A DNA stretch of 28,398 nucleotides, from positions 1-28,398 of IMG/VR virus record IMGVR_UViG_3300027917_000148; one strand, written 5' to 3'. Shown piece after piece: positions 7,381 to 17,181 of the stretch (its first letter is position 1; every line of letters begins with the position of its first letter). A program made the position numbers and the translations under genes. This DNA comes from a virus. Taxonomy: Duplodnaviria > Caudoviricetes. The notes under the pieces were generated by a model. The model was not told the DNA's origin and searched no databases. It worked only from the letters and a program-made list of their open reading frames with translations.

Positions 7381-10300
7381 ATGCCAGTTTCACAAGCTAC
7401 AGCTACAGCAAGTACTACTACAACATCTGCAACATATGGATTGTTGTCTGGTATGACTCTGACTCCAGGTGCAGGAAACTACATCCTTTCATTTGATGCA
7501 TCTGCTCAATGTAGTGATGAATCCAGAGTATTCTTTCAAGTATTTGTTAATGGTGTGGCTGTAGGACATACCCAAAGAGTCTTCTTTATGGAAGGTTCTA
7601 TTGTCAATAGACAAACTAGTGTAAAGATTTATGCTTACCTTCCAAATGTTGGTGCTGGACAAGCAGTAGAAATTAGATGGTATAGGGATACCGCTGGAAC
7701 GGCTACTTGTTATGATAGAACATTAGTTTTACAAAAAGTTAATGCATCTGATATCAGTCAAGCAACCGCAACCGCTCTGACAAATACTACCAGCACTACA
7801 AACGTACAGATGAACAGCATGACTCTGACTCCAGGGGTTGCTGGTAATTACATAATTTACTTCTCCTCATCCATATACGGAACATCGGAAGCAGATAATT
7901 ATCTTTCTGTTTATATCAACGGAGTACAGGTTACTCATAGTATAAGAAGAAATTTTCAAGATGCTTCTACTCCTAATACTGAATATATTTTCGGTCTTGT
8001 CATTGGTGCATCCGTTGGGGCTAGTGATACAATAGAAATCCGCTGGAGAACTTCTTCTGGTGACACGGCATATGCACGTAGCAGAACTTTAATAGCTCAA
8101 AGAATAACTAGTTATAATCAAGTAACTGGCACATCCACGCTTCAAACTACTTCTGCTACCTATGGCTTAATGGGGTCAATGGCAATCACTCCTGCCGCTG
8201 GAAGCTACATTGCGTTCTTTACTACAAGTGTATATCTAAGTACATCAACCAATTCAGAGATACGGTATACCTTATATAGTGCAGGAGCGCAAATTGCTCA
8301 TACGGCACGTATATCTGAATATGATTCTTCATATGACCAGATAACTCCTCTTCCAGCCGCTACTCATGCGTATATAACAGGTCTTACTGGATCACAGCAA
8401 GTTGATGTTAGATGGAATAGGGAAACTGGTACTGCAAATGTGATTAACCGTACATTTGTTCTTGTTCCAGCGGAAGTAAGCTCTTCTTCAAGTTCTACTT
8501 CTTCGTCAAGTTCAAGCTTTAGTGGTTCAAGCTCATCTTCGTCAAGCTCCAGTTCTCTAAGCTCTTCGTCAAGTAGCTCATCTTCATCGTCCAGTTCGTC
8601 AAGCAGTTCCTCTTCGTCATCGTCAAGTTCCTCTTCGTCATCGTCAAGTTCCTCATCCTCAAGCTCTTCGTCAAGCTCTACAAGCTCTTCTTCAACTTCT
8701 TCTTCTTCTGCTTCAAAGGCTACGGTAACATGGGGTCACGATACAGGAGTAGAGGAAGATGTTGCCAGAGATTTTTCTGGAAACTGGGAACTATCTAACG
8801 TCACAGTAAGCGGTTCGGGTGATTCTGAAACATTAACCTTCTGGTGTCCTACAGCTACAGCTATTTCAGAGGAATGGCTTTTAGGAGCAATGTCTTCTGC
8901 TCAAATCGTTTTAGACAAATATGATGCCTTGGCAGAGGGGCCAGCAATCGGAGTAGAATATAAAACTTCTACAACAAAAATAGGATTAGGTAGTATAGGG
9001 TGGACTCCGTATAACGGAAATGAGTTTACTAGTTTAGGATGGGTGCAGATAAGAATTTTCAAAGGTCTTGACGTACATGCGGAAGCAGGAATACTGGGAA
9101 GTACTGCTACTGACTCTGTATCCGCTTCCATTTCAATACCTCCATCTGGTTACTATGCTGAACCTTGTGGATGTCCTTTAAATAGAGTAGTTGTGGCTGG
9201 TGTGTCATGGGAAGATGCATCCACAGGAAGTTATGTTGCTTCGTGTCAATTTAACGGCATAGACATGACTTTAATATCTGGTGCGGAAGCAGTAGCTCCT
9301 AATAGCAGAATAAGCAATATTCAGCTTTATGCAATTTATGAAAACCAGTTACCATCTGTAGGTGGAGAGTATACTATAACCGCTCAGATTTCTGGAGCTA
9401 ATGAACCAGATGTTCAACCATACTTAACTGCCGTAGTTCTACAGGATATTAAACAAAGAATACCAGAAGTAAGTAAAACGATAGAAATACAAAGAGCGGC
9501 TGGTTTACAAACATTTTCTCATTCTGTACCAGTAAGTGCTGGTGACTCATTTAGTCATATAATTCTACATCATTTGATCAATAGTGAAGGAATTGGAGAT
9601 TCCCCACCTAGTGGTGGTGTGTATTTATCTCATAGTAATAGTCAAATTGAAGTATTTAATGAAGCTAATGATAACAGTACAGTAGGATTAACTTATAAAA
9701 CAGTTCCATCTGGTGGTGGCACATATACATGGAGTCATACTTTAAGTAGTGGTGTAATAATTCAAAGACATATGATTTTCGCAAGTCTATGGGATAGGGA
9801 ACCATGCTTAAATCCCACTACTATAGATGACGTTACTCTGACAAGCTCATCTTCGTCAAGCTCAAGTGAATCATCTTCGTCAAGTTCTTCGTCAAGCTCC
9901 AGTTCTCTAAGCTCTTCAAGCTCTTCTCTTTCATCTTCATGTCCTCCTACTATTATAGAAGATATAGGTCTGCAATCCTCATCCTCAAGCTCCAGTTCAT
10001 CTAGTCAATCGTCTTCGTCAAGTTCGTCTTCGTCATCTAGTAGTTCGTCAAGTTCAAGCAGTTCGTCTTCGTCCAGTTCGTCCTCTTCAAGCTCAAGCTC
10101 CAGTTCCAGCGAATCTTCGTCCAGTTCGTCCTCAAGTTCTTCTTCTTCGTCCAGTTCCAGTTCGTCCAGTTCGTCCTCAAGTTCTTCTTCTTCGTCCAGT
10201 TCCAGTTCGTCCAGTTCGTCAAGTTCATCCTCATCGTCAAGCAGTTCAAGCTATAGCTCATCCTCATCGTCAAGTTCTTCTTCGTCCAGTTCCAGTTCGT

Positions 10301-13300
10301 CCAGTTCGTCCTCATCGTCAAGTAGCTCTTCTTCGTCATCTAGTAGTTCGTCTTCGTCTTCGTCAAGTTCAAGCGAGTCATCTTCAAGTGCTGTTCCGTT
10401 TGGTTGTCCTGTAGATGTTACAATGAACACATGTACAATAAGCGGAGGAGATCACATTTCTCTATGCAATTGTTTTGATGACGATGTGTTATGTATTAAT
10501 GAATGTACTGGTGCTCCAGGTTTTGATGCTGATTTTACTTTTGAAGGATTGAATCCTTCTTTTCAATATACAGTTACTATAAGATTTAGATATAATCCTG
10601 CCAATCCTGCTCATATTATAAAATTAAGAATATATAACTACAATACTCTTTCTTATGATAACGTAACGGCAGATTCTACAGATTTCCCACAAAATGCTAA
10701 CTACCAGACTAAGGTATTTAACTTACCTAGTACAATGACTAATTACGTTAGTGGTGGTGTGGCTGTACTTAAAACCATACATACGTCACCTGGAAATACA
10801 CTTCACAAATTTTGTATAGACTGTATGAATTTAGCTGTAGGGTCATCTTCGTCAAGTTCATCCTCATCGTCACTTAGCTCTTCGTCAAGTTCCAGTAGCT
10901 CTTCATCCTCAAGTAGTTCGTCCTCAAGCTCTAGCAGTTCGTCAAGTAGCTCAAGCAGTTCGTCCTCAAGTTCTAGTAGTTCGTCCTCATCGTCAAGTAG
11001 CTCCAGTAGCTCATCTTCATTTTCTAGTAGCTCATCCTCAAGTTCAAGTAGTTCGTCTTCGTCATCCTCAAGTTCAAGTAGCTCCAGTAGCTCATCCTCA
11101 AGTTCAAGTAGCTCCAGTAGCTCATCCTCATTTTCTAGTAGTTCGTCTTCGTCTTCATCGTCAAGTAGCTCATCCTCAAGTTCAAGTAGCTCATCCTCAT
11201 CCTCAAGTTCTTCTTCATTTTCTAGCAGTTCGTCCAGTTCGTCAAGTAGCTCATCGTCAAGTTCAAGTAGCTCATCGTCAAGTTCTAGTAGTTCATCCTC
11301 AAGCTCAAGCTCATCCAGTTCCAGCGAATCTTCGTCAAGTAGCTCAAGTAGCTCATCGTCAAGTTCTAGTAGTTCGTCAAGCTCAAGCTCCAGCGAATCT
11401 TCATCCAGTTCCAGCGAATCATCGTCAAGCAGTTCAAGTAGCTCATCGTCAAGTTCTAGTAGTTCGTCAAGTTCAAGCTCCAGCGAATCTTCGTCAAGTA
11501 GCTCAAGTAGCTCATCGTCAAGTTCAAGTAGTTCGTCAAGTTCAAGCTCCAGCGAATCTTCGTCAAGTAGCTCTTCATCGTCAAGTAGCTCATCGTCAAG
11601 TTCCAGTAGCTCATCGTCAAGTTCCAGTAGTTCGTCTTCGTCATCGGAAAGTTCAAGTAGCTCTTCATCGTCAAGTAGCTCTTCCTCAAGTTCTAGTAGT
11701 TCGTCCTCAAGTTCAAGTAGCTCATCGTCAAGTTCCAGTAGTTCGTCTTCGTCATCGTCAAGTTCCAGTAGTTCGTCTTCGTCATCGGAAAGTTCAAGTA
11801 GCTCTTCATCGTCAAGCAGTTCGTCCTCAAGTTCTAGTAGTTCGTCTTCGTCAAGCTCCAGCTTTAGTAGTTCGTCAAGTTCAAGTAGCTCATCTGAAAG
11901 TTCAAGTAGCTCAAGTAGTTCGTCTTCGTCATCCTCAAGCTCAAGTAGTTCGTCTTCATCGTCAAGCAGTTCAAGTAGCTCATCGTCAAGTTCAAGTAGC
12001 TCAAGCAGTTCAAGTTCTTCCTCTGAAAGTTCAAGTAGTTCGTCTTCGTCATCGTCAAGTTCCAGTAGTTCGTCTTCGTCATCGTCAAGTTCAAGTAGCT
12101 CATCGTCAAGCTCTAGTAGTTCATCTTCGTCAAGCTCCAGCTTTAGTAGTTCGTCAAGCTCTTCATCAGAATCATCTTCCTCAAGTAGCTCCAGCGAATC
12201 AAGTAGCTCATCCTCAAGTTCAAGCAGTTCGTCCTCAAGTTCTAGCAGTTCGTCTTCGTCAAGCTCCAGTAAATCAAGTTCAAGTAGCTCAAGTAGCTCA
12301 TCTGAAAGTTCATCTTCGTCAAGCAGTTCGTTCTCTTCGTCAAGTAGCTCAAGTAGCTCATCCAGTTCGTCAAGCAGTTCGTCCTCAAGCTCCAGCGAAT
12401 CAAGTAGTTCAAGCAGTTCGTCCTCAAGTTCTAGTAGTTCCTCCTCATCTTCTTTTAGCTCATCCTCATCCAGTTCATCAAGCAGTTCGTCCTCAAGTTC
12501 TAGTAGTTCGTCAAGCTCAAGCTCCAGTAAATCAAGTTCAAGTAGCTCCAGTAGCTCATCTGAAAGTTCATCTTCGTCAAGTAGCTCATCCAGTTCGTCA
12601 AGCAGTTCGTCCTCAAGTTCTAGTAGTTCGTCTTCGTCAAGCTCTTCAAGTAGCTCATCCTCAAGTTCAAGTAGCTCATCCTCAAGTTCAAGTAGTTCGT
12701 CTTCGTCAAGCTCCAGTTCTCTAAGCTCTTCAAGCTCTAGTAGTTCATCCAGCGAATCATCTTCGTCAAGCAGTTCGTCCTCAAGTTCTAGTAGTTCGTC
12801 TTCGTCAAGCAGTTCATCCTCATCCAGTTCTTCCTCATCTGAATCATCTTCAAGCTCAAGCGAATCAAGCTCAAGCTCCAGTATTAGTTCATCTTCAATT
12901 TCTTCTTCCTCATCATCAGTTAGCTCATCGTCAGTTAGCTCATCGTCATCTAGTAAATCTTCGTCAAGTGAATCTTCGTCAAGTTCGTCAAGTTCGTCTA
13001 GCGAATCAAGTTCTAGCAGTTCCAGTTCTGTTAGCTCAAGCAGTTCGTCACGGTCATCTTCGTCAAGCTCAAGTTCGTCAAGCTTTAGCAGTTCGTCAAG
13101 CTCAAGTTCGTCAAGCGTAAGCAGTTCTTCTTCTTCGTCCAGCGAATCAAGTTCAAGCAGTTCAAGTTCTTCCTCTGAAAGTTCATCCTCTTCATCAAGC
13201 TCCAGTTCGTCAAGCAGTTCTGAATCATCCTCTTCAAGCTCAAGTTCGTCAAGCAGTTCGTCCTCATCCAGTTCTTCCTCAAGTTCGTCAAGCAGTTCCA

Positions 13301-14064
13301 GCGTGAGCAGTTCCAGTAGTTCTGTATCTTCGTCAAGTTCCAGCGTGAGTTCTTCTTCAAGTAGTTCCTCATCTGTGAGTTCTTCTTCGTCAAGTGAAAG
13401 TTCATCTTCGTCTTCGTCCAGTTCGTCTTCGTCTTCGTCAAGCTCCAGTTCCGTAAGTTCCTCATCCAGTTCATCTTCGTCAAGTAGCTCATCGTCCTCA
13501 AGCTCAAGTTCTTCAAGTTCAAGTTCCTCAAGTAGTTCGGTTAGCTCATCTTCAAGCTCTGTATCATCTTCTTCTTCGTCATTTAGTTCATCCTCATTTA
13601 GCTTTAGTTCTTCAAGCTCCAGCTTGTCTTCAAGCTCTTCGTCTAAGTCATCGTCTTCCTCATCATTTAGAGAAGAAGGAGGAGGAGGATATCCTGTATA
13701 TCCTGTAGCACCAAGAAGACCAGAATTTATTTGGTTCGATATTTCTTCCTCTTCGTCAAGTAGCTCTTCGTCAATATCCAGTAGCTATAGCAGTAGTTCA
13801 TGGTCATCAACCTCAAGCTCTTCAAGTGTGAGCAGTTCTTCAAGCTCAAGTGCTATCAAAGTTACTGTACAGATACCAAAGAAATTTAATAAACAAATGA
13901 TAATAAAGGTAACGGAGCCTAAGAGGAAGAAACCAAAGAAAGAAATTAGAATCAATGTTACCTTGAAAGAAGAAGTAAAAGAAGATTTGATTAAAGCCAT
14001 ACCAGCAAAGGAGAAAACAAAACAAGCGATTGGAATAGATATAAAAACGATCAAATCTAGTTAA
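7381..14064 (+). CDS. Giant poly-serine modular protein, probably a virion appendage/fibre
   Basis: 2227 aa uninterrupted ORF. Three tandem ~120 aa N-terminal repeats, several globular domains separated by poly-Ser tracts, and a Lys-rich C-terminus. Confidence 0.8.
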   Translation: MPVSQATATASTTTTSATYGLLSGMTLTPGAGNYILSFDASAQCSDESRVFFQVFVNGVAVGHTQRVFFMEGSIVNRQTSVKIYAYLPNVGAGQAVEIRWYRDTAGTATCYDRTLVLQKVNASDISQATATALTNTTSTTNVQMNSMTLTPGVAGNYIIYFSSSIYGTSEADNYLSVYINGVQVTHSIRRNFQDASTPNTEYIFGLVIGASVGASDTIEIRWRTSSGDTAYARSRTLIAQRITSYNQVTGTSTLQTTSATYGLMGSMAITPAAGSYIAFFTTSVYLSTSTNSEIRYTLYSAGAQIAHTARISEYDSSYDQITPLPAATHAYITGLTGSQQVDVRWNRETGTANVINRTFVLVPAEVSSSSSSTSSSSSSFSGSSSSSSSSSSLSSSSSSSSSSSSSSSSSSSSSSSSSSSSSSSSSSSSSSSSTSSSSTSSSSASKATVTWGHDTGVEEDVARDFSGNWELSNVTVSGSGDSETLTFWCPTATAISEEWLLGAMSSAQIVLDKYDALAEGPAIGVEYKTSTTKIGLGSIGWTPYNGNEFTSLGWVQIRIFKGLDVHAEAGILGSTATDSVSASISIPPSGYYAEPCGCPLNRVVVAGVSWEDASTGSYVASCQFNGIDMTLISGAEAVAPNSRISNIQLYAIYENQLPSVGGEYTITAQISGANEPDVQPYLTAVVLQDIKQRIPEVSKTIEIQRAAGLQTFSHSVPVSAGDSFSHIILHHLINSEGIGDSPPSGGVYLSHSNSQIEVFNEANDNSTVGLTYKTVPSGGGTYTWSHTLSSGVIIQRHMIFASLWDREPCLNPTTIDDVTLTSSSSSSSSESSSSSSSSSSSSLSSSSSSLSSSCPPTIIEDIGLQSSSSSSSSSSQSSSSSSSSSSSSSSSSSSSSSSSSSSSSSSSSSSESSSSSSSSSSSSSSSSSSSSSSSSSSSSSSSSSSSSSSSSSSSSSSYSSSSSSSSSSSSSSSSSSSSSSSSSSSSSSSSSSSSSSSSESSSSAVPFGCPVDVTMNTCTISGGDHISLCNCFDDDVLCINECTGAPGFDADFTFEGLNPSFQYTVTIRFRYNPANPAHIIKLRIYNYNTLSYDNVTADSTDFPQNANYQTKVFNLPSTMTNYVSGGVAVLKTIHTSPGNTLHKFCIDCMNLAVGSSSSSSSSSSLSSSSSSSSSSSSSSSSSSSSSSSSSSSSSSSSSSSSSSSSSSSSSSSSFSSSSSSSSSSSSSSSSSSSSSSSSSSSSSSSSSSSSFSSSSSSSSSSSSSSSSSSSSSSSSSSSSFSSSSSSSSSSSSSSSSSSSSSSSSSSSSSSSSSSSESSSSSSSSSSSSSSSSSSSSSSESSSSSSESSSSSSSSSSSSSSSSSSSSSSESSSSSSSSSSSSSSSSSSSSSSESSSSSSSSSSSSSSSSSSSSSSSSSSSSSSESSSSSSSSSSSSSSSSSSSSSSSSSSSSSSSSSSSSSSSSSSSSSSESSSSSSSSSSSSSSSSSSSSSSSSFSSSSSSSSSSESSSSSSSSSSSSSSSSSSSSSSSSSSSSSSSSSSSSSSSSSSESSSSSSSSSSSSSSSSSSSSSSSSSSSSSSSSSSSSSSFSSSSSSSSESSSSSSSSESSSSSSSSSSSSSSSSSSSSSSSSKSSSSSSSSSSESSSSSSSSFSSSSSSSSSSSSSSSSSSSSSESSSSSSSSSSSSSSSSSSFSSSSSSSSSSSSSSSSSSSSSSSSKSSSSSSSSSSESSSSSSSSSSSSSSSSSSSSSSSSSSSSSSSSSSSSSSSSSSSSSSSSSSSSLSSSSSSSSSSESSSSSSSSSSSSSSSSSSSSSSSSSSSSESSSSSSESSSSSSISSSSISSSSSSVSSSSVSSSSSSKSSSSESSSSSSSSSSESSSSSSSSVSSSSSSRSSSSSSSSSSFSSSSSSSSSSVSSSSSSSSESSSSSSSSSSESSSSSSSSSSSSSSESSSSSSSSSSSSSSSSSSSSSSSSSSVSSSSSSVSSSSSSVSSSSSSSSSVSSSSSSESSSSSSSSSSSSSSSSSSVSSSSSSSSSSSSSSSSSSSSSSSSSSSSVSSSSSSVSSSSSSFSSSSFSFSSSSSSLSSSSSSKSSSSSSFREEGGGGYPVYPVAPRRPEFIWFDISSSSSSSSSSISSSYSSSSWSSTSSSSSVSSSSSSSAIKVTVQIPKKFNKQMIIKVTEPKRKKPKKEIRINVTLKEEVKEDLIKAIPAKEKTKQAIGIDIKTIKSS
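10843..13665 (+). repeat. Low-complexity poly-serine-coding tract (~941 codons)
   Basis: Mosaic of TCN and AGY codons with recurring blocks such as TCGTCAAGT and TCAAGTAGC. Shorter tracts lie at about 6904-7010, 8479-8715, 9844-9940, 9976-10389 and 13744-13851. Confidence 0.95.
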
Positions 14065-14069
14065 AATTT

Positions 14070-14077
14070 TATAAATA
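14070..14077 (+). promoter_or_regulatory. T4-type late promoter TATAAATA
   Basis: Exact consensus between the poly-Ser gene and 14113. Confidence 0.7.
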
Positions 14078-14726: not shown

Positions 14727-15038
14727 ATGCCAGTCAAACCAGAGAAAGGACAAAAGAGATGGCAGTATATGGATAAGTGTATGCATGAGATCACTCATAA
14801 ATCAAAAAAAGAAAGATCACATGAACAAAGACTAGCCATTTGTTTAGGACAATGGGCTGAATTCTCTAACGAAGATGCCATATTGAATAAATTTGATTTA
14901 CTTCTAATTGGAGAAGAGATGAAATGTCCAGAAGGACAAAAATACTGACCAGTTAAAGGTGAATGTGTACCAGTTGGTACAGGAAGAAAAATCAGACAAA
15001 GACAAAGACAAGGCAATGGAAAGGGAATGGGAGAATGA
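14727..15038 (+). CDS. Small Cys-motif protein with in-frame UGA at 14946-14948; candidate selenoprotein (103 aa, ...KCPEGQKY-U-PVKGECVPVGTG...)
   Basis: Reading through the TGA completes a CPxGQ-x8-CVP motif that is also present in 15474-15938. The extended frame ends in an ATGA overlap with the next start at 15035. A hairpin follows the UGA. Without recoding the gene ends at 14948. Confidence 0.65.
14946..14981 (+). promoter_or_regulatory. UGA plus candidate bacterial-type SECIS hairpin
   Basis: Stem TGTACC (14966-71) / GGTACA (14976-81) with loop AGTT. The loop starts 24 nt after the UGA and has G at loop position 2, followed by U. Confidence 0.55.
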
Positions 15039-15436
15039 CTCTAATTGATAAAATAGACAGATTACTAGTAGAACGCTATAGTGGGCCTACCGTTACTGTT
15101 ACATGGGAGTTATGTGATCCTAAAGACTGGGATGGAGACACATGTACAGAAGTAGACATTAATCTTGGATTCTATCACACACCAGAAGAAAAAGAAATGG
15201 GATATATAAGAGTTCCAGAAACCTTTGAATTAGAAACAGTAGAGTTCGCTGAAAATATTACATACATGGGAAAGAAATATCGCTATGGACAAGCATTTCC
15301 AAAGCAATTAAGAAAACATGTCATGCAGTTTAGAGATCCTGTAGGACGTGCTGGATTCAAAAAAGGAAACTGGGAGTCATTTGTTAATAGGCAATTGTAT
15401 GAAAAACTTGGTGTAGAACATAGATACATAGCGTAA
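15035..15436 (+). CDS. Hypothetical protein (MTLIDKIDRLLVE...), putative head-internal protein
   Basis: Start reassigned from 14963 to ATG 15035, where the shared IDKIDxLL N-terminal motif begins. Confidence 0.75.
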   Translation: MTLIDKIDRLLVERYSGPTVTVTWELCDPKDWDGDTCTEVDINLGFYHTPEEKEMGYIRVPETFELETVEFAENITYMGKKYRYGQAFPKQLRKHVMQFRDPVGRAGFKKGNWESFVNRQLYEKLGVEHRYIA

Positions 15437-15444
15437 ATAGTTTG

Positions 15445-15473
15445 TTTACATTTACTTCCGAGTGGGGTATAAT
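15445..15473 (+). promoter_or_regulatory. Sigma70/T4-early-like promoter (G)TTTACA-N17-TATAAT
   Basis: Near-consensus boxes with a 17 bp spacer. The -10 directly abuts ATG 15474, so the target gene is unclear. Confidence 0.45.
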
Positions 15474-15938
15474 ATGGACATCATTAATAAAATAGATAAA
15501 CTACTAGGAGATCAAACTTCTGGAGCCACCACTACAGGTAACGTAGCAACTAACCTAGCTAAAGGACATGTAGATGTTATAGGTGGTGTACGTAGAGGAG
15601 TGAGTAGTATAGGTTATCAATGTCCGAAAGGTCAAGTATGGGATAAGACTACAAGGAAATGTGTTCCTTCAAAGAATGAGTCAAGTGTTGTGGGAGGATC
15701 ATATATAGCTGGAAGTACAGTTAACATTGTGGGATCTGGACAAACCAGAGTTTGGGGAGACAGGCTCAGATGGATGATTGACCTTGATAGGAAAGAACCA
15801 GTAGAAGAAGAAATACCAGATAAAGCAGAACAAAATATTGAGATGAGGAAAGGATTAAAGTTTAACAACATATTAGGAGCCTACGTTCCGCAAGGAGATA
15901 CGGAGATTGAGCCAAGATATGTTGAAGGAGAAGTATGA
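15474..15938 (+). CDS. Hypothetical protein (MDIINKIDKLL...) with CPKGQVWDKTTRKCVP motif
   Basis: Shared N-terminal motif. The Cys motif is paralogous to the UGA-containing motif upstream. Confidence 0.75.
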   Translation: MDIINKIDKLLGDQTSGATTTGNVATNLAKGHVDVIGGVRRGVSSIGYQCPKGQVWDKTTRKCVPSKNESSVVGGSYIAGSTVNIVGSGQTRVWGDRLRWMIDLDRKEPVEEEIPDKAEQNIEMRKGLKFNNILGAYVPQGDTEIEPRYVEGEV

Positions 15939-16153: not shown

Positions 16154-16450
16154 ATGTCTGATATAGATATTCTAGACAAAATTGAAGTAGAACAGTTAAT
16201 CCAAGACACAAAAGAATTCATGGAAGATCCAGAGCTTGCAGAAGCCGCTGTTAAAACCGCTGGCTGGACAAAATCTTCTGTAGAAAAATTTGGGAAGACA
16301 ATCGGAAAAGAACCTGGGAAAAAAGGATTCTTTGATGCATGTGTTATGAAGATGAAGGGAAGGGTAAACGATCCAGAAGGATTTTGTGCAAGTCTTAAAG
16401 ACAAATACTACGGAAATACGGACTGGAGAGGAAAAGACAAAGAGAAGTGA
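16154..16450 (+). CDS. Small protein with a Cys pair (FFDACV...EGFCASLKD)
   Basis: 98 aa with GGAGG SD, directly abutting the previous stop. Confidence 0.75.
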   Translation: MSDIDILDKIEVEQLIQDTKEFMEDPELAEAAVKTAGWTKSSVEKFGKTIGKEPGKKGFFDACVMKMKGRVNDPEGFCASLKDKYYGNTDWRGKDKEK

Positions 16451-17181
16451 AGCTAAAGCAATTTCTTAAAGAAGGTCAATGACCGCTTCAAACCATGTAC
16501 GGTGAAATGCCTACAGGTGGTAGGTTTGGCCCTTATACAGAATATGAATTAGCCGCTCAAAACATGGCAGAAGCGGCACATTGCATACTTGGATCATTGG
16601 CTAAGTTAAATAGTAATACTCCTTTTTGGATGGAGAAAGGACACATTAAAGAAGAAATGGGTATTATAGAAAGAGCCATGAAAGAGTATACTAGAGATGT
16701 TTATCTTGGACGTGTCTTTAGACCTGAAAATGCTAAGAAAACAATAGAGTCTGTTAAGAAAGCCGCTCCTAGATTAGAAAAAGATGCAATGAGCGCAAGA
16801 CGTAGAGTAAGTAAAAATCTACCAAAGGAAATACAGGATCTAGCAAAATATGCATATGATTTTTTAGTTCTTTTAGCAAGAAAGCTTTTAGATAGTGTAG
16901 AGCAAATAGAAAAAGGAAATATGGTAAACGCTTATAGAAATACTATACTACAAGCTTCTGTTAAAAATCTAAGAAAAATGGTAGATAGGTTTTTGAAGTT
17001 ATCAGATGAAGGAACAATAGAAGATCCATATGTAAAACCACAACCCAAGCTAAAAGTTAAACGTGTTCCTAAAGGAACCATAGCAAAGATGACAAAGAAA
17101 CAAAAAGAAGAGCAAAAGAACAGAAGAAAAGAATTAGAAAAAATGGACATAATGGATCTGCTATTCAAAAAGGATATATGA
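16447..17181 (+). CDS. Protein with in-frame UGA at codon 12 (16480-16482); candidate selenoprotein (MKLKQFLKEGQ-U-PLQTMYGEMP..., 244 aa)
   Basis: A GTGA overlap start at 16447 gives MKLKQFLKE, in frame with the 228 aa ORF at 16495, which has no SD of its own. A hairpin follows the UGA. Confidence 0.6.
16480..16527 (+). promoter_or_regulatory. UGA plus candidate bacterial-type SECIS hairpin
   Basis: Stem GCCTAC (16509-14) / GTAGGT (16520-25) with loop AGGTG, extendable by two A-U pairs past a bulged U. The loop starts 33 nt after the UGA. Confidence 0.5.

Follow-up and report, generated by a model that had tools for sequence, protein, structure and literature searches.

An open reading frame of the tailed-phage record IMGVR_UViG_3300027917_000148 (Caudoviricetes) contains an in-frame UGA at its twelfth codon, which raises the question of whether translation ends there after 11 residues or continues, and if it continues, which amino acid is inserted. 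The whole 28,398-nucleotide stretch analysed is referred to here as the window. A sequence-only reading had proposed this gene as a candidate phage selenoprotein with a hidden N-terminus. The parts of the gene on which the question turns are:

16447..17181, + strand: full gene, 244 codons plus stop, with a single internal UGA at codon 12; predicted to encode a helical-bundle selenoprotein
16447..16473, + strand: GTG start and leader MKLKQFLKE, with L-x-E at its end; the leader is predicted to be a propeptide for capsid targeting
16480..16482, + strand: in-frame UGA, aligned with a conserved Cys (C-P motif) and likely to be read as selenocysteine (Sec)

Source phage and its relatives

Judged from its sequence, the window represents part of a T4-like phage genome. 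Genes for a UvsW-like helicase, UvsY, a DnaB-like helicase and a family B polymerase lie directly 3' of the studied gene, and the polymerase shared only 28.8% identity with its best named matches (cyanophages). Related contigs had an estimated completeness of 11–21%. The best holders of related sequence among sequencing runs were marine sediment and seawater metagenomes, and no RNA run was among the matches listed for the runs carrying the sequence. None of 50,697 GenBank phages had a match to the studied gene. Three matches to the protein were obtained in prokaryote genomes; because all were distant (29–35%) and both translated ones were Cys forms, they indicated no host. Distant homologues lay on contigs filed under Halobacteriovorax and Gemmatimonadota MAGs (L115, L116 and L117), the contig of L115 probably being a binned phage contig. 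Elsewhere in the window, ORF 7381–14064 encodes 2,227 aa with very long poly-serine tracts, and similar serine-rich stretches were present in L013, L014, L028 and L029.

Reading frame and start of the gene

The proposed upstream start was confirmed in its details. GTG16447 overlaps the stop of the preceding ORF 16154–16450 (TGA 16448–16450) as GTGA, and the N-terminus MKLKQFLKEGQ-TGA-CCG CTT CAA ACC ATG is in frame with ORF 16495–17181 (228 aa). The ATG of that shorter ORF does lack a Shine-Dalgarno (SD) sequence, as had been remarked: the anti-SD duplex energy was +0.7 kcal/mol for ATG16495, −2.3 kcal/mol 5' of ATG16507 and −6.0 kcal/mol 5' of GTG16447. ATG16495 was not conserved: at this position L031 has ATT and the nearest Cys forms have CAA. 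L013/L027 differ by a 3-nt indel within the leader frame, and the PLQT codons between the TGA and ATG16495 showed synonymous changes across relatives. Together, the indel, the synonymous changes and the replaced ATG indicate that the conserved start is the upstream one; on this pattern of substitution, the frame on both sides of the TGA appears to evolve as coding sequence. Homologues beginning at MYGEMP, which the earlier reading had named as the finding that would count against it, were not what was observed: they began upstream, at an MKL/MKF...L-x-E leader.

The UGA codon and its cysteine counterparts

An alignment of 35 database homologues first placed the TGA on the Cys of a C-P motif. 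We then considered 90 loci (L012–L101), 67 of them distinct and 65 of these holding the region. Aligning homologues across codon 12 had been suggested as a check, and a conserved Cys or TGA was indeed present at that column: 42 of the 65 distinct loci had Cys, four had TGA and 19 had neither. The four TGA loci were those of the window's phage, of L013 and L027 (72% identity to it) and of L031 (52%). The absence of an N-terminal Cys from 19/65 loci indicated that this residue is not essential to the family.

Public databases presented the same column less clearly. Among 121 database proteins, 91 had Cys, 17 began just after the column, 1 had Trp, 7 had a different residue or a displaced Cys and 5 were left unparsed; the TGA loci L013, L027 and L031 corresponded to P0009, P0048 and P0041. 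Trp at the column was seen in three database proteins, P0007, P0038 and P0047. Since P0047 is the protein of L031 with W at its TGA, the Trp entries P0007 and P0038 are probably code-4 gene calls. Within one 90% cluster, public gene calls either give Trp or truncate the protein. Such Trp calls and truncations at this codon are probably an annotation artefact that hides such genes.

The codon was also stable among close relatives. That the TGA might be a read error or a strain-specific nonsense mutation, a caveat raised earlier, did not hold, as the same TGA was found in 6/6 near-identical viral contigs and in divergent relatives. Two further sediment strains, represented in four runs from two studies, kept 16480–16482 unchanged at approximately 89% and 92% DNA identity (20 and 14 differences in 185 nt, respectively), and their substitutions agreed with the peptides of P0004 and P0008.

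An earlier tree had been made by a quick method only. In a careful tree of 28 rows, TGA and truncated forms fell in two groups among Cys forms and the outer branches were all Cys; two changes were needed, and a single origin of the TGA was not rejected (p-AU 0.064). By this tree, the TGA would have been gained from Cys ancestors within one phage group.

Searches for comparable codons elsewhere were also made. A degenerate DNA pattern meant to detect TGA forms in further clades, which also misses the known TGA loci, matched 0 viral contigs. Two naive six-frame screens for other recoded TGAs returned mostly antisense or off-frame matches, with only the two known TGAs in real coding frames among the matches listed. 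Sec at the invariant Cys46 of the protein was considered and rejected, the sole viral EAAH-TGA-ILG match being an off-frame chance match in an unrelated gene.

A hairpin downstream of the UGA

Within the coding sequence, the UGA is followed by a SECIS-like element:

16509..16525, + strand: SECIS-like hairpin with a 6-bp stem and loop AGGUG (16515–16519), 32 nt after the UGA

The hairpin GCCTAC-AGGTG-GTAGGT with a bulged T below it was recovered as described in the sequence-only reading, with T16508 as the bulge and the pairs 16506–7/16526–7 beneath it in the local minimum free energy fold. In the bacterial SECIS model of PMC13188914, as given in its accessible text, the loop has 3–9 nt, the stem 4–16 bp and the spacing 16–37 nt, with a G within the first two loop positions and a minimum free energy of at most −7.5 kcal/mol. 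The window hairpin, with a loop of 5, a stem of 6, A-G-G and a spacing of 32, was within all the rules of geometry; its energy was −6.6 kcal/mol for the 17 nt alone and −11.8 kcal/mol with flanks, against the limit of −7.5. In L013 and L027 the hairpin energy was −7.9 kcal/mol, and in L013 it lost to a competing fold for two of the three window lengths. The full 68-nt region in the window was no more stable than shuffles (z 0.55), and no Rfam match was obtained in the window. When the TGA triplets on both strands of the window were scanned, with the Ser-rich stretch 8400–13800 left out, 7 of 872 had an equally stable SECIS-like hairpin, TGA 16480 among them. The likeness to the apex of the E. 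coli fdhF SECIS that had been pointed out stood in part: the CAGGU 5-mer is shared, but its position differs (+32 to +36 here vs. +17 to +21).

Conservation of the hairpin followed that of the codon. It was kept with compensatory changes in the TGA loci and was absent from the closest Cys loci, contrary to the possibility, allowed for earlier, that it might not be conserved. All five inner pairs were present in 4/4 TGA loci, 3/42 Cys loci and 0/19 others, and the core ACAGGTGGT in 4/4 TGA loci vs. 0/61 others, while under a synonymous-codon null the five pairs arose in 0.5–6% of random draws. The nearest Cys forms (L014, L015, L016 and L030) had a hairpin energy of only −0.2 to +0.1 kcal/mol. 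The stem varied as CCU/AGG in the window, UCC/GGA in L013 and L027 and CCC/GGG in L031, and these two-sided changes also alter amino acids. Over the TGA loci, 23/24 cells paired and 2/6 pairs were changed on both sides, compared to 21–67% paired at slid control positions; the covariation score, from four aligned loci of which two are near-identical, was reached by 21/500 shuffles, and the P-T-G-G-G peptide by itself favours such pairing. One strain from the sequencing runs had three further changes (16511, 16522 and 16525), with pairing kept at all of them. The loop third-position bases A, T and T did not vary among the TGA loci, a constancy that suggests sequence-specific recognition. Third positions were likewise fixed in all four TGA loci over 16492–16503 (ACC...GGT), a segment with the potential to fold into another small hairpin, after the UGA and ahead of the main stem.

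Genetic code and a second, probably recoded gene

Across 28 genes of the window (9,095 codons) there were 150 TGG and 88 TGT/TGC codons. Internal TGA occurred only at 14946 and 16480, plus 15036, which is read as the true stop of the gene beginning at 14727. Five of the 28 genes ended in TGA, and none of these stops had such a hairpin. The TGA at 14946 belongs to a gene of the same cluster:

14727..15038, + strand: second recoded gene, CPEGQKY-UGA(14946–14948)-PVKGEC, conserved in L013, L014 and L015
14966–14981, + strand: hairpin of the second gene, loop AGUU, 23 nt after the UGA, identical in relatives

The earlier suggestion that the cluster holds two recoded UGAs was thereby supported: the 14946 gene has the same design, with its TGA kept in relatives. 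The TGA and the 16-nt hairpin were identical at the DNA level in L013, L014 and L015, at 57–64% protein identity, and TGA 14946 ranked eighth in hairpin stability among the 872 triplets scanned. L014 and L015 had the TGA in this second gene, yet Cys and no hairpin in the studied gene, which indicates that the hairpin follows the codon gene by gene.

Several further observations were made in this part of the cluster. In the second gene, whose motif reads CPxGxxY-UGA-PxKxEC, the UGA comes after an internal FDL...EE stretch similar to a cleavage site. The relatives of this gene have 161–168 aa, and the window copy stops at 15036–15038. ORF 15035–15436 (133 aa) overlaps this stop, had no tblastn match in 88 related loci, and may have been inserted recently, shortening the gene before it. 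The following ORF 15474–15938 carries the same small motif in an all-Cys form, YQCPKGQVWDKTTRKCVP, and had a weak CBM_14 match (E 4e-4) below the cut-off.

Identity of the residue at codon 12

With the frame, the Cys column and the hairpin considered together, we regard UGA 16480 as almost certainly translated. Given its alignment with a conserved Cys and the co-varying hairpin inside the gene, codon 12 most likely specifies Sec, probably inserted by a host SelB. No tRNA genes were found in the window or in 10 related contigs and loci, and neither tRNA-Sec nor SelB was present in any of five phage fragments (11–21% complete); the machinery thus probably comes from the host, although the larger part of the phage genome is unseen.

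All the sequence evidence, including the Cys column and the hairpin, would fit equally well if the host inserted Cys in place of Sec by SECIS-dependent recoding through a SelC*/tRNA-ReC. This route is documented: according to the available text of PMC13582414, tRNA-ReC decodes UGA as Cys given a downstream SECIS in Desulfobacterota and other phyla, and the marine sediment source of the phage is in line with it. However, tRNA-ReC accompanies the canonical tRNA-Sec and occurs in a minority of genomes, about 13–17% (PMC13582414). Nor would inserting Cys give the phage an evident advantage over TGT/TGC codons, and still the TGA persists despite the amino-acid cost in the hairpin. Such insertion of Cys, the foremost competing reading, is unlikely in our judgement.

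Both recoded UGAs (14946 and 16480) have C as the next base, and UGA followed by C is a leaky context. The hairpin might accordingly stimulate readthrough of the codon by a near-cognate tRNA, that for Trp or that for Cys, and so set a low protein dose; the distance of the hairpin from the codon and the three database proteins with Trp at the column would suit this reading. Against it, both UGAs are at Cys positions and the third-position bases of the loop are fixed in all TGA loci, and to judge by P0047 the Trp entries would be code-4 gene calls. We consider near-cognate readthrough improbable to a marked degree.

Were the UGA a real stop, ribosomes would release an 11-residue leader peptide and resume at ATG16495 or ATG16507, and the resulting protein would lack the N-terminal Cys. 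The 17 of 121 database proteins in which gene callers begin there, and the 19 of 65 loci without N-terminal Cys, are compatible with such an arrangement. Neither ATG has an SD sequence, however (+0.7 and −2.3 kcal/mol); L031 has ATT in place of the first one, and substitutions in the PLQT codons that separate it from the UGA are synonymous. The hairpin, moreover, accompanies the TGA and is missing from the nearest Cys forms. Termination at this codon is therefore very improbable.

Alternative codes do occur in phages (PMC9523058, on code 15), but a phage-wide genetic code 4 (UGA as Trp), an assembly error or a strain-specific nonsense mutation is effectively refuted: 150 TGG stand against two internal TGA, several genes end in TGA, and the same TGA recurs in 6/6 near-identical contigs and in divergent relatives.

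Protein family and predicted site

The predicted full-length protein has two conserved segments:

16570..16596, + strand: motif E42-A-A-H45-C46-I-L-G-S50, 8/9 positions invariant in the 79-row alignment A2
16642..16656, + strand: H66-x-x-E69-E70 in the second helix, invariant

The residues E42, H45, C46, H66, E69, E70 and Y81 were invariant in the same 79 rows; as EAAHCILG also served as the search seed for loci, its conservation there is partly by selection. The E42–S50 motif together with H66, E69 and E70 is predicted to be an active or metal site. AlphaFold2 (79 sequences) gave a confident helical bundle (mean pLDDT 91, pTM 0.79), in which residues 11–30 were ordered.

No family for the window protein was found in Pfam, PHROG, NCBIfam or PADLOC, and a few homologues had sub-threshold matches to unrelated family models only. 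PDB sequences gave only weak helical-bundle matches, and Foldseek searches of PDB, BFVD and ESM Atlas gave no structural match at the cut-off of E ≤ 0.001. The best VIA match was SLC30A10, a CDF transporter (Z 9.4, rmsd 3.7, 156 aligned), and ferritin-like entries in VIA had Z 5.5–6.3, scores within the range common for helical bundles.

A partner for the N-terminal residue was suggested by the distribution of other cysteines. An additional Cys between the YGG motif and E42 was present in 8/25 homologues without N-terminal Cys, where it is new, compared to 1/125 of those with it (153 distinct homologues, 3 of them unanchored; kinship was not corrected and the 25 include two Trp entries). We infer that the N-terminal thiol or selenol may partner Cys46, the two acting either as a redox pair or as ligands of a shared metal, which is the weakest step of our proposal.

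Predicted head packaging

Two promoter-like elements near the gene bear on when it may be expressed:

14070..14077, + strand: T4-type late promoter motif TATAAATA, heading the gene cluster
15445..15473, + strand: sigma-70-like promoter match, 11/12, three genes upstream of the studied gene; consensus match only

The window contained seven copies of TATAAATA, which we take to be the T4-type late promoter consensus, vs. 1.83 expected, and 0/100 shuffles were as high. They form a divergent pair at 1696–1717 and single sites at 2297, 3853, 4933, 14070 and 20999. Sigma-70-like sites were not enriched overall (18 in the window vs. 16.2 expected), and the one at 15445–15473 could allow earlier expression as well.

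The leader of the studied protein ends in L-x-E. In T4, as described in the available parts of the sources, the cleavage motif of gp21 is L/I-X-E (PMC9026906) and the capsid-targeting propeptides have 10 residues (PMC9026906, PMC9958956). Among the Cys-type database homologues, 71/91 had [LIVF]-x-E at most 12 residues before the Cys, a count with no chance control. In longer homologues (n = 21) the domain was fused to MuF, portal, DdrB-ParB, Fic, NUDIX/GNAT, PAP2 and GGACT domains, and in other relatives to HD and CCA-adding domains; such multidomain fusions are the context of head-packaged polyvalent proteins in the accessible text of PMC5512222. In L024 (7326–9437), the domain and a CCA-adding/poly(A) polymerase with an HD domain were joined by another L-x-E stretch. 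No prohead protease was found among the 29 ORFs of the window and 75 ORFs of related fragments. The L-x-E leader, the late promoter motif and the MuF and portal fusions in relatives point to head packaging, and the studied protein is predicted to be packed into the phage head. Both this packaging and the thiol-pair chemistry are less certain than the translation of the UGA or the identity of Sec.

Proposed mechanism and implications

In the mechanism that we propose, translation would start at GTG16447, coupled to the upstream stop, and host SelB would bind the AGGUG hairpin and insert Sec via the host SelB/tRNA-Sec system to give a 244-residue phage selenoprotein. Where Sec insertion fails, an 11-residue peptide would be released, which would tie the yield of protein to the selenium of the host. 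Targeting to the prohead would be the task of the L-x-E leader, which a gp21-type protease would remove after LKE to leave Sec as residue 3, in line with the sequence-only reading; the protein would then be injected together with the DNA. Its N-terminal Sec (or Cys) would most likely act as the selenol/thiol partner of Cys46 at the E42/H45/H66/E69/E70 site. The protein would thereby be a host-takeover enzyme that depends on redox chemistry or on a metal and belongs to a new family.

The comprehensive form of this proposal is one that we advance tentatively, as somewhat short of an even prospect: that within a group of T4-like sediment phages the phages' own genes gave rise to selenoproteins, some genomes carrying two or more of them, with a SECIS tuned to the host SelB and Sec placed just behind a head-maturation cleavage site, and that the virion carries and injects selenium enzymes of a new E/H/C helical-bundle family, their production tied to host selenium.

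If true, a phage-borne selenoprotein family would extend the 21st amino acid to bacteriophages and would demonstrate that a change from Cys to Sec with a new SECIS is possible in phage genes. Gene callers would truncate or mistranslate such genes, as in the 17/121 database entries that begin after the column, and the host would be limited to Sec-using bacteria. The natural Sec and Cys versions in closely related phages offer a ready comparison for what selenium adds.

Comparison with known systems

The closest parallel is with bacterial SelB/SECIS selenoprotein genes, whose prototype is E. coli fdhF. These likewise have an in-frame UGA at a conserved Cys position, an in-ORF stem-loop with G at loop position 2 followed by G and a spacing within 16–37 nt, and Cys-type homologues that are far commoner. 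The studied gene differs in being phage-encoded and in having no CxxU/UxxC motif; compared to fdhF, its spacing is 32 nt instead of about 18, with CAGGU 15 nt further out. The protein had no match in the accessible table of described prokaryotic selenoprotein families (PMC13188914). The predicted selenoprotein gene works like a bacterial SECIS-dependent one and belongs to no described selenoprotein family.

In head packaging, the nearest likeness is to T4 IPI–IPIII and Alt, whose propeptide is cut by gp21 after L/I-X-E according to the available text of PMC9026906 and PMC9958956. The studied gene shares with them an approximately 10-residue basic N-terminal leader ending in L-x-E, a putative late-promoter context and T4-like replication genes nearby, whereas its mature part has no similarity to any known family and no protease gene was found in the fragments. 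With the phage polyvalent and MuF-associated head-packaged proteins, its relatives share MuF, portal, DdrB-ParB, NUDIX and GNAT fusions (PMC5512222, available text), but the studied domain stands alone and is without a Pfam model.

The literature on selenoproteins in phages and viruses, covered largely outside subscription papers and supplements, yielded no report of a phage selenoprotein. The word 'selenocysteine' is absent from the accessible text of PMC5512222, and phage, virus and viral are absent from the main text of PMC13188914 (2026; 119 prokaryotic selenoprotein families). In the available text of PMC9402790, the other families examined there lack viral sequences or have very few. The viral selenoproteins described in the accessible part of PMC8310308 are the glutathione peroxidases of two poxviruses, molluscum contagiosum and fowlpox. 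These are likewise viral genes that rely on the host Sec machinery, and the fowlpox SECIS is likewise inside the coding sequence. The poxvirus proteins are captured host enzymes of eukaryotic viruses, whereas the family described here appears to be phage-borne and to use a SECIS of the bacterial type.
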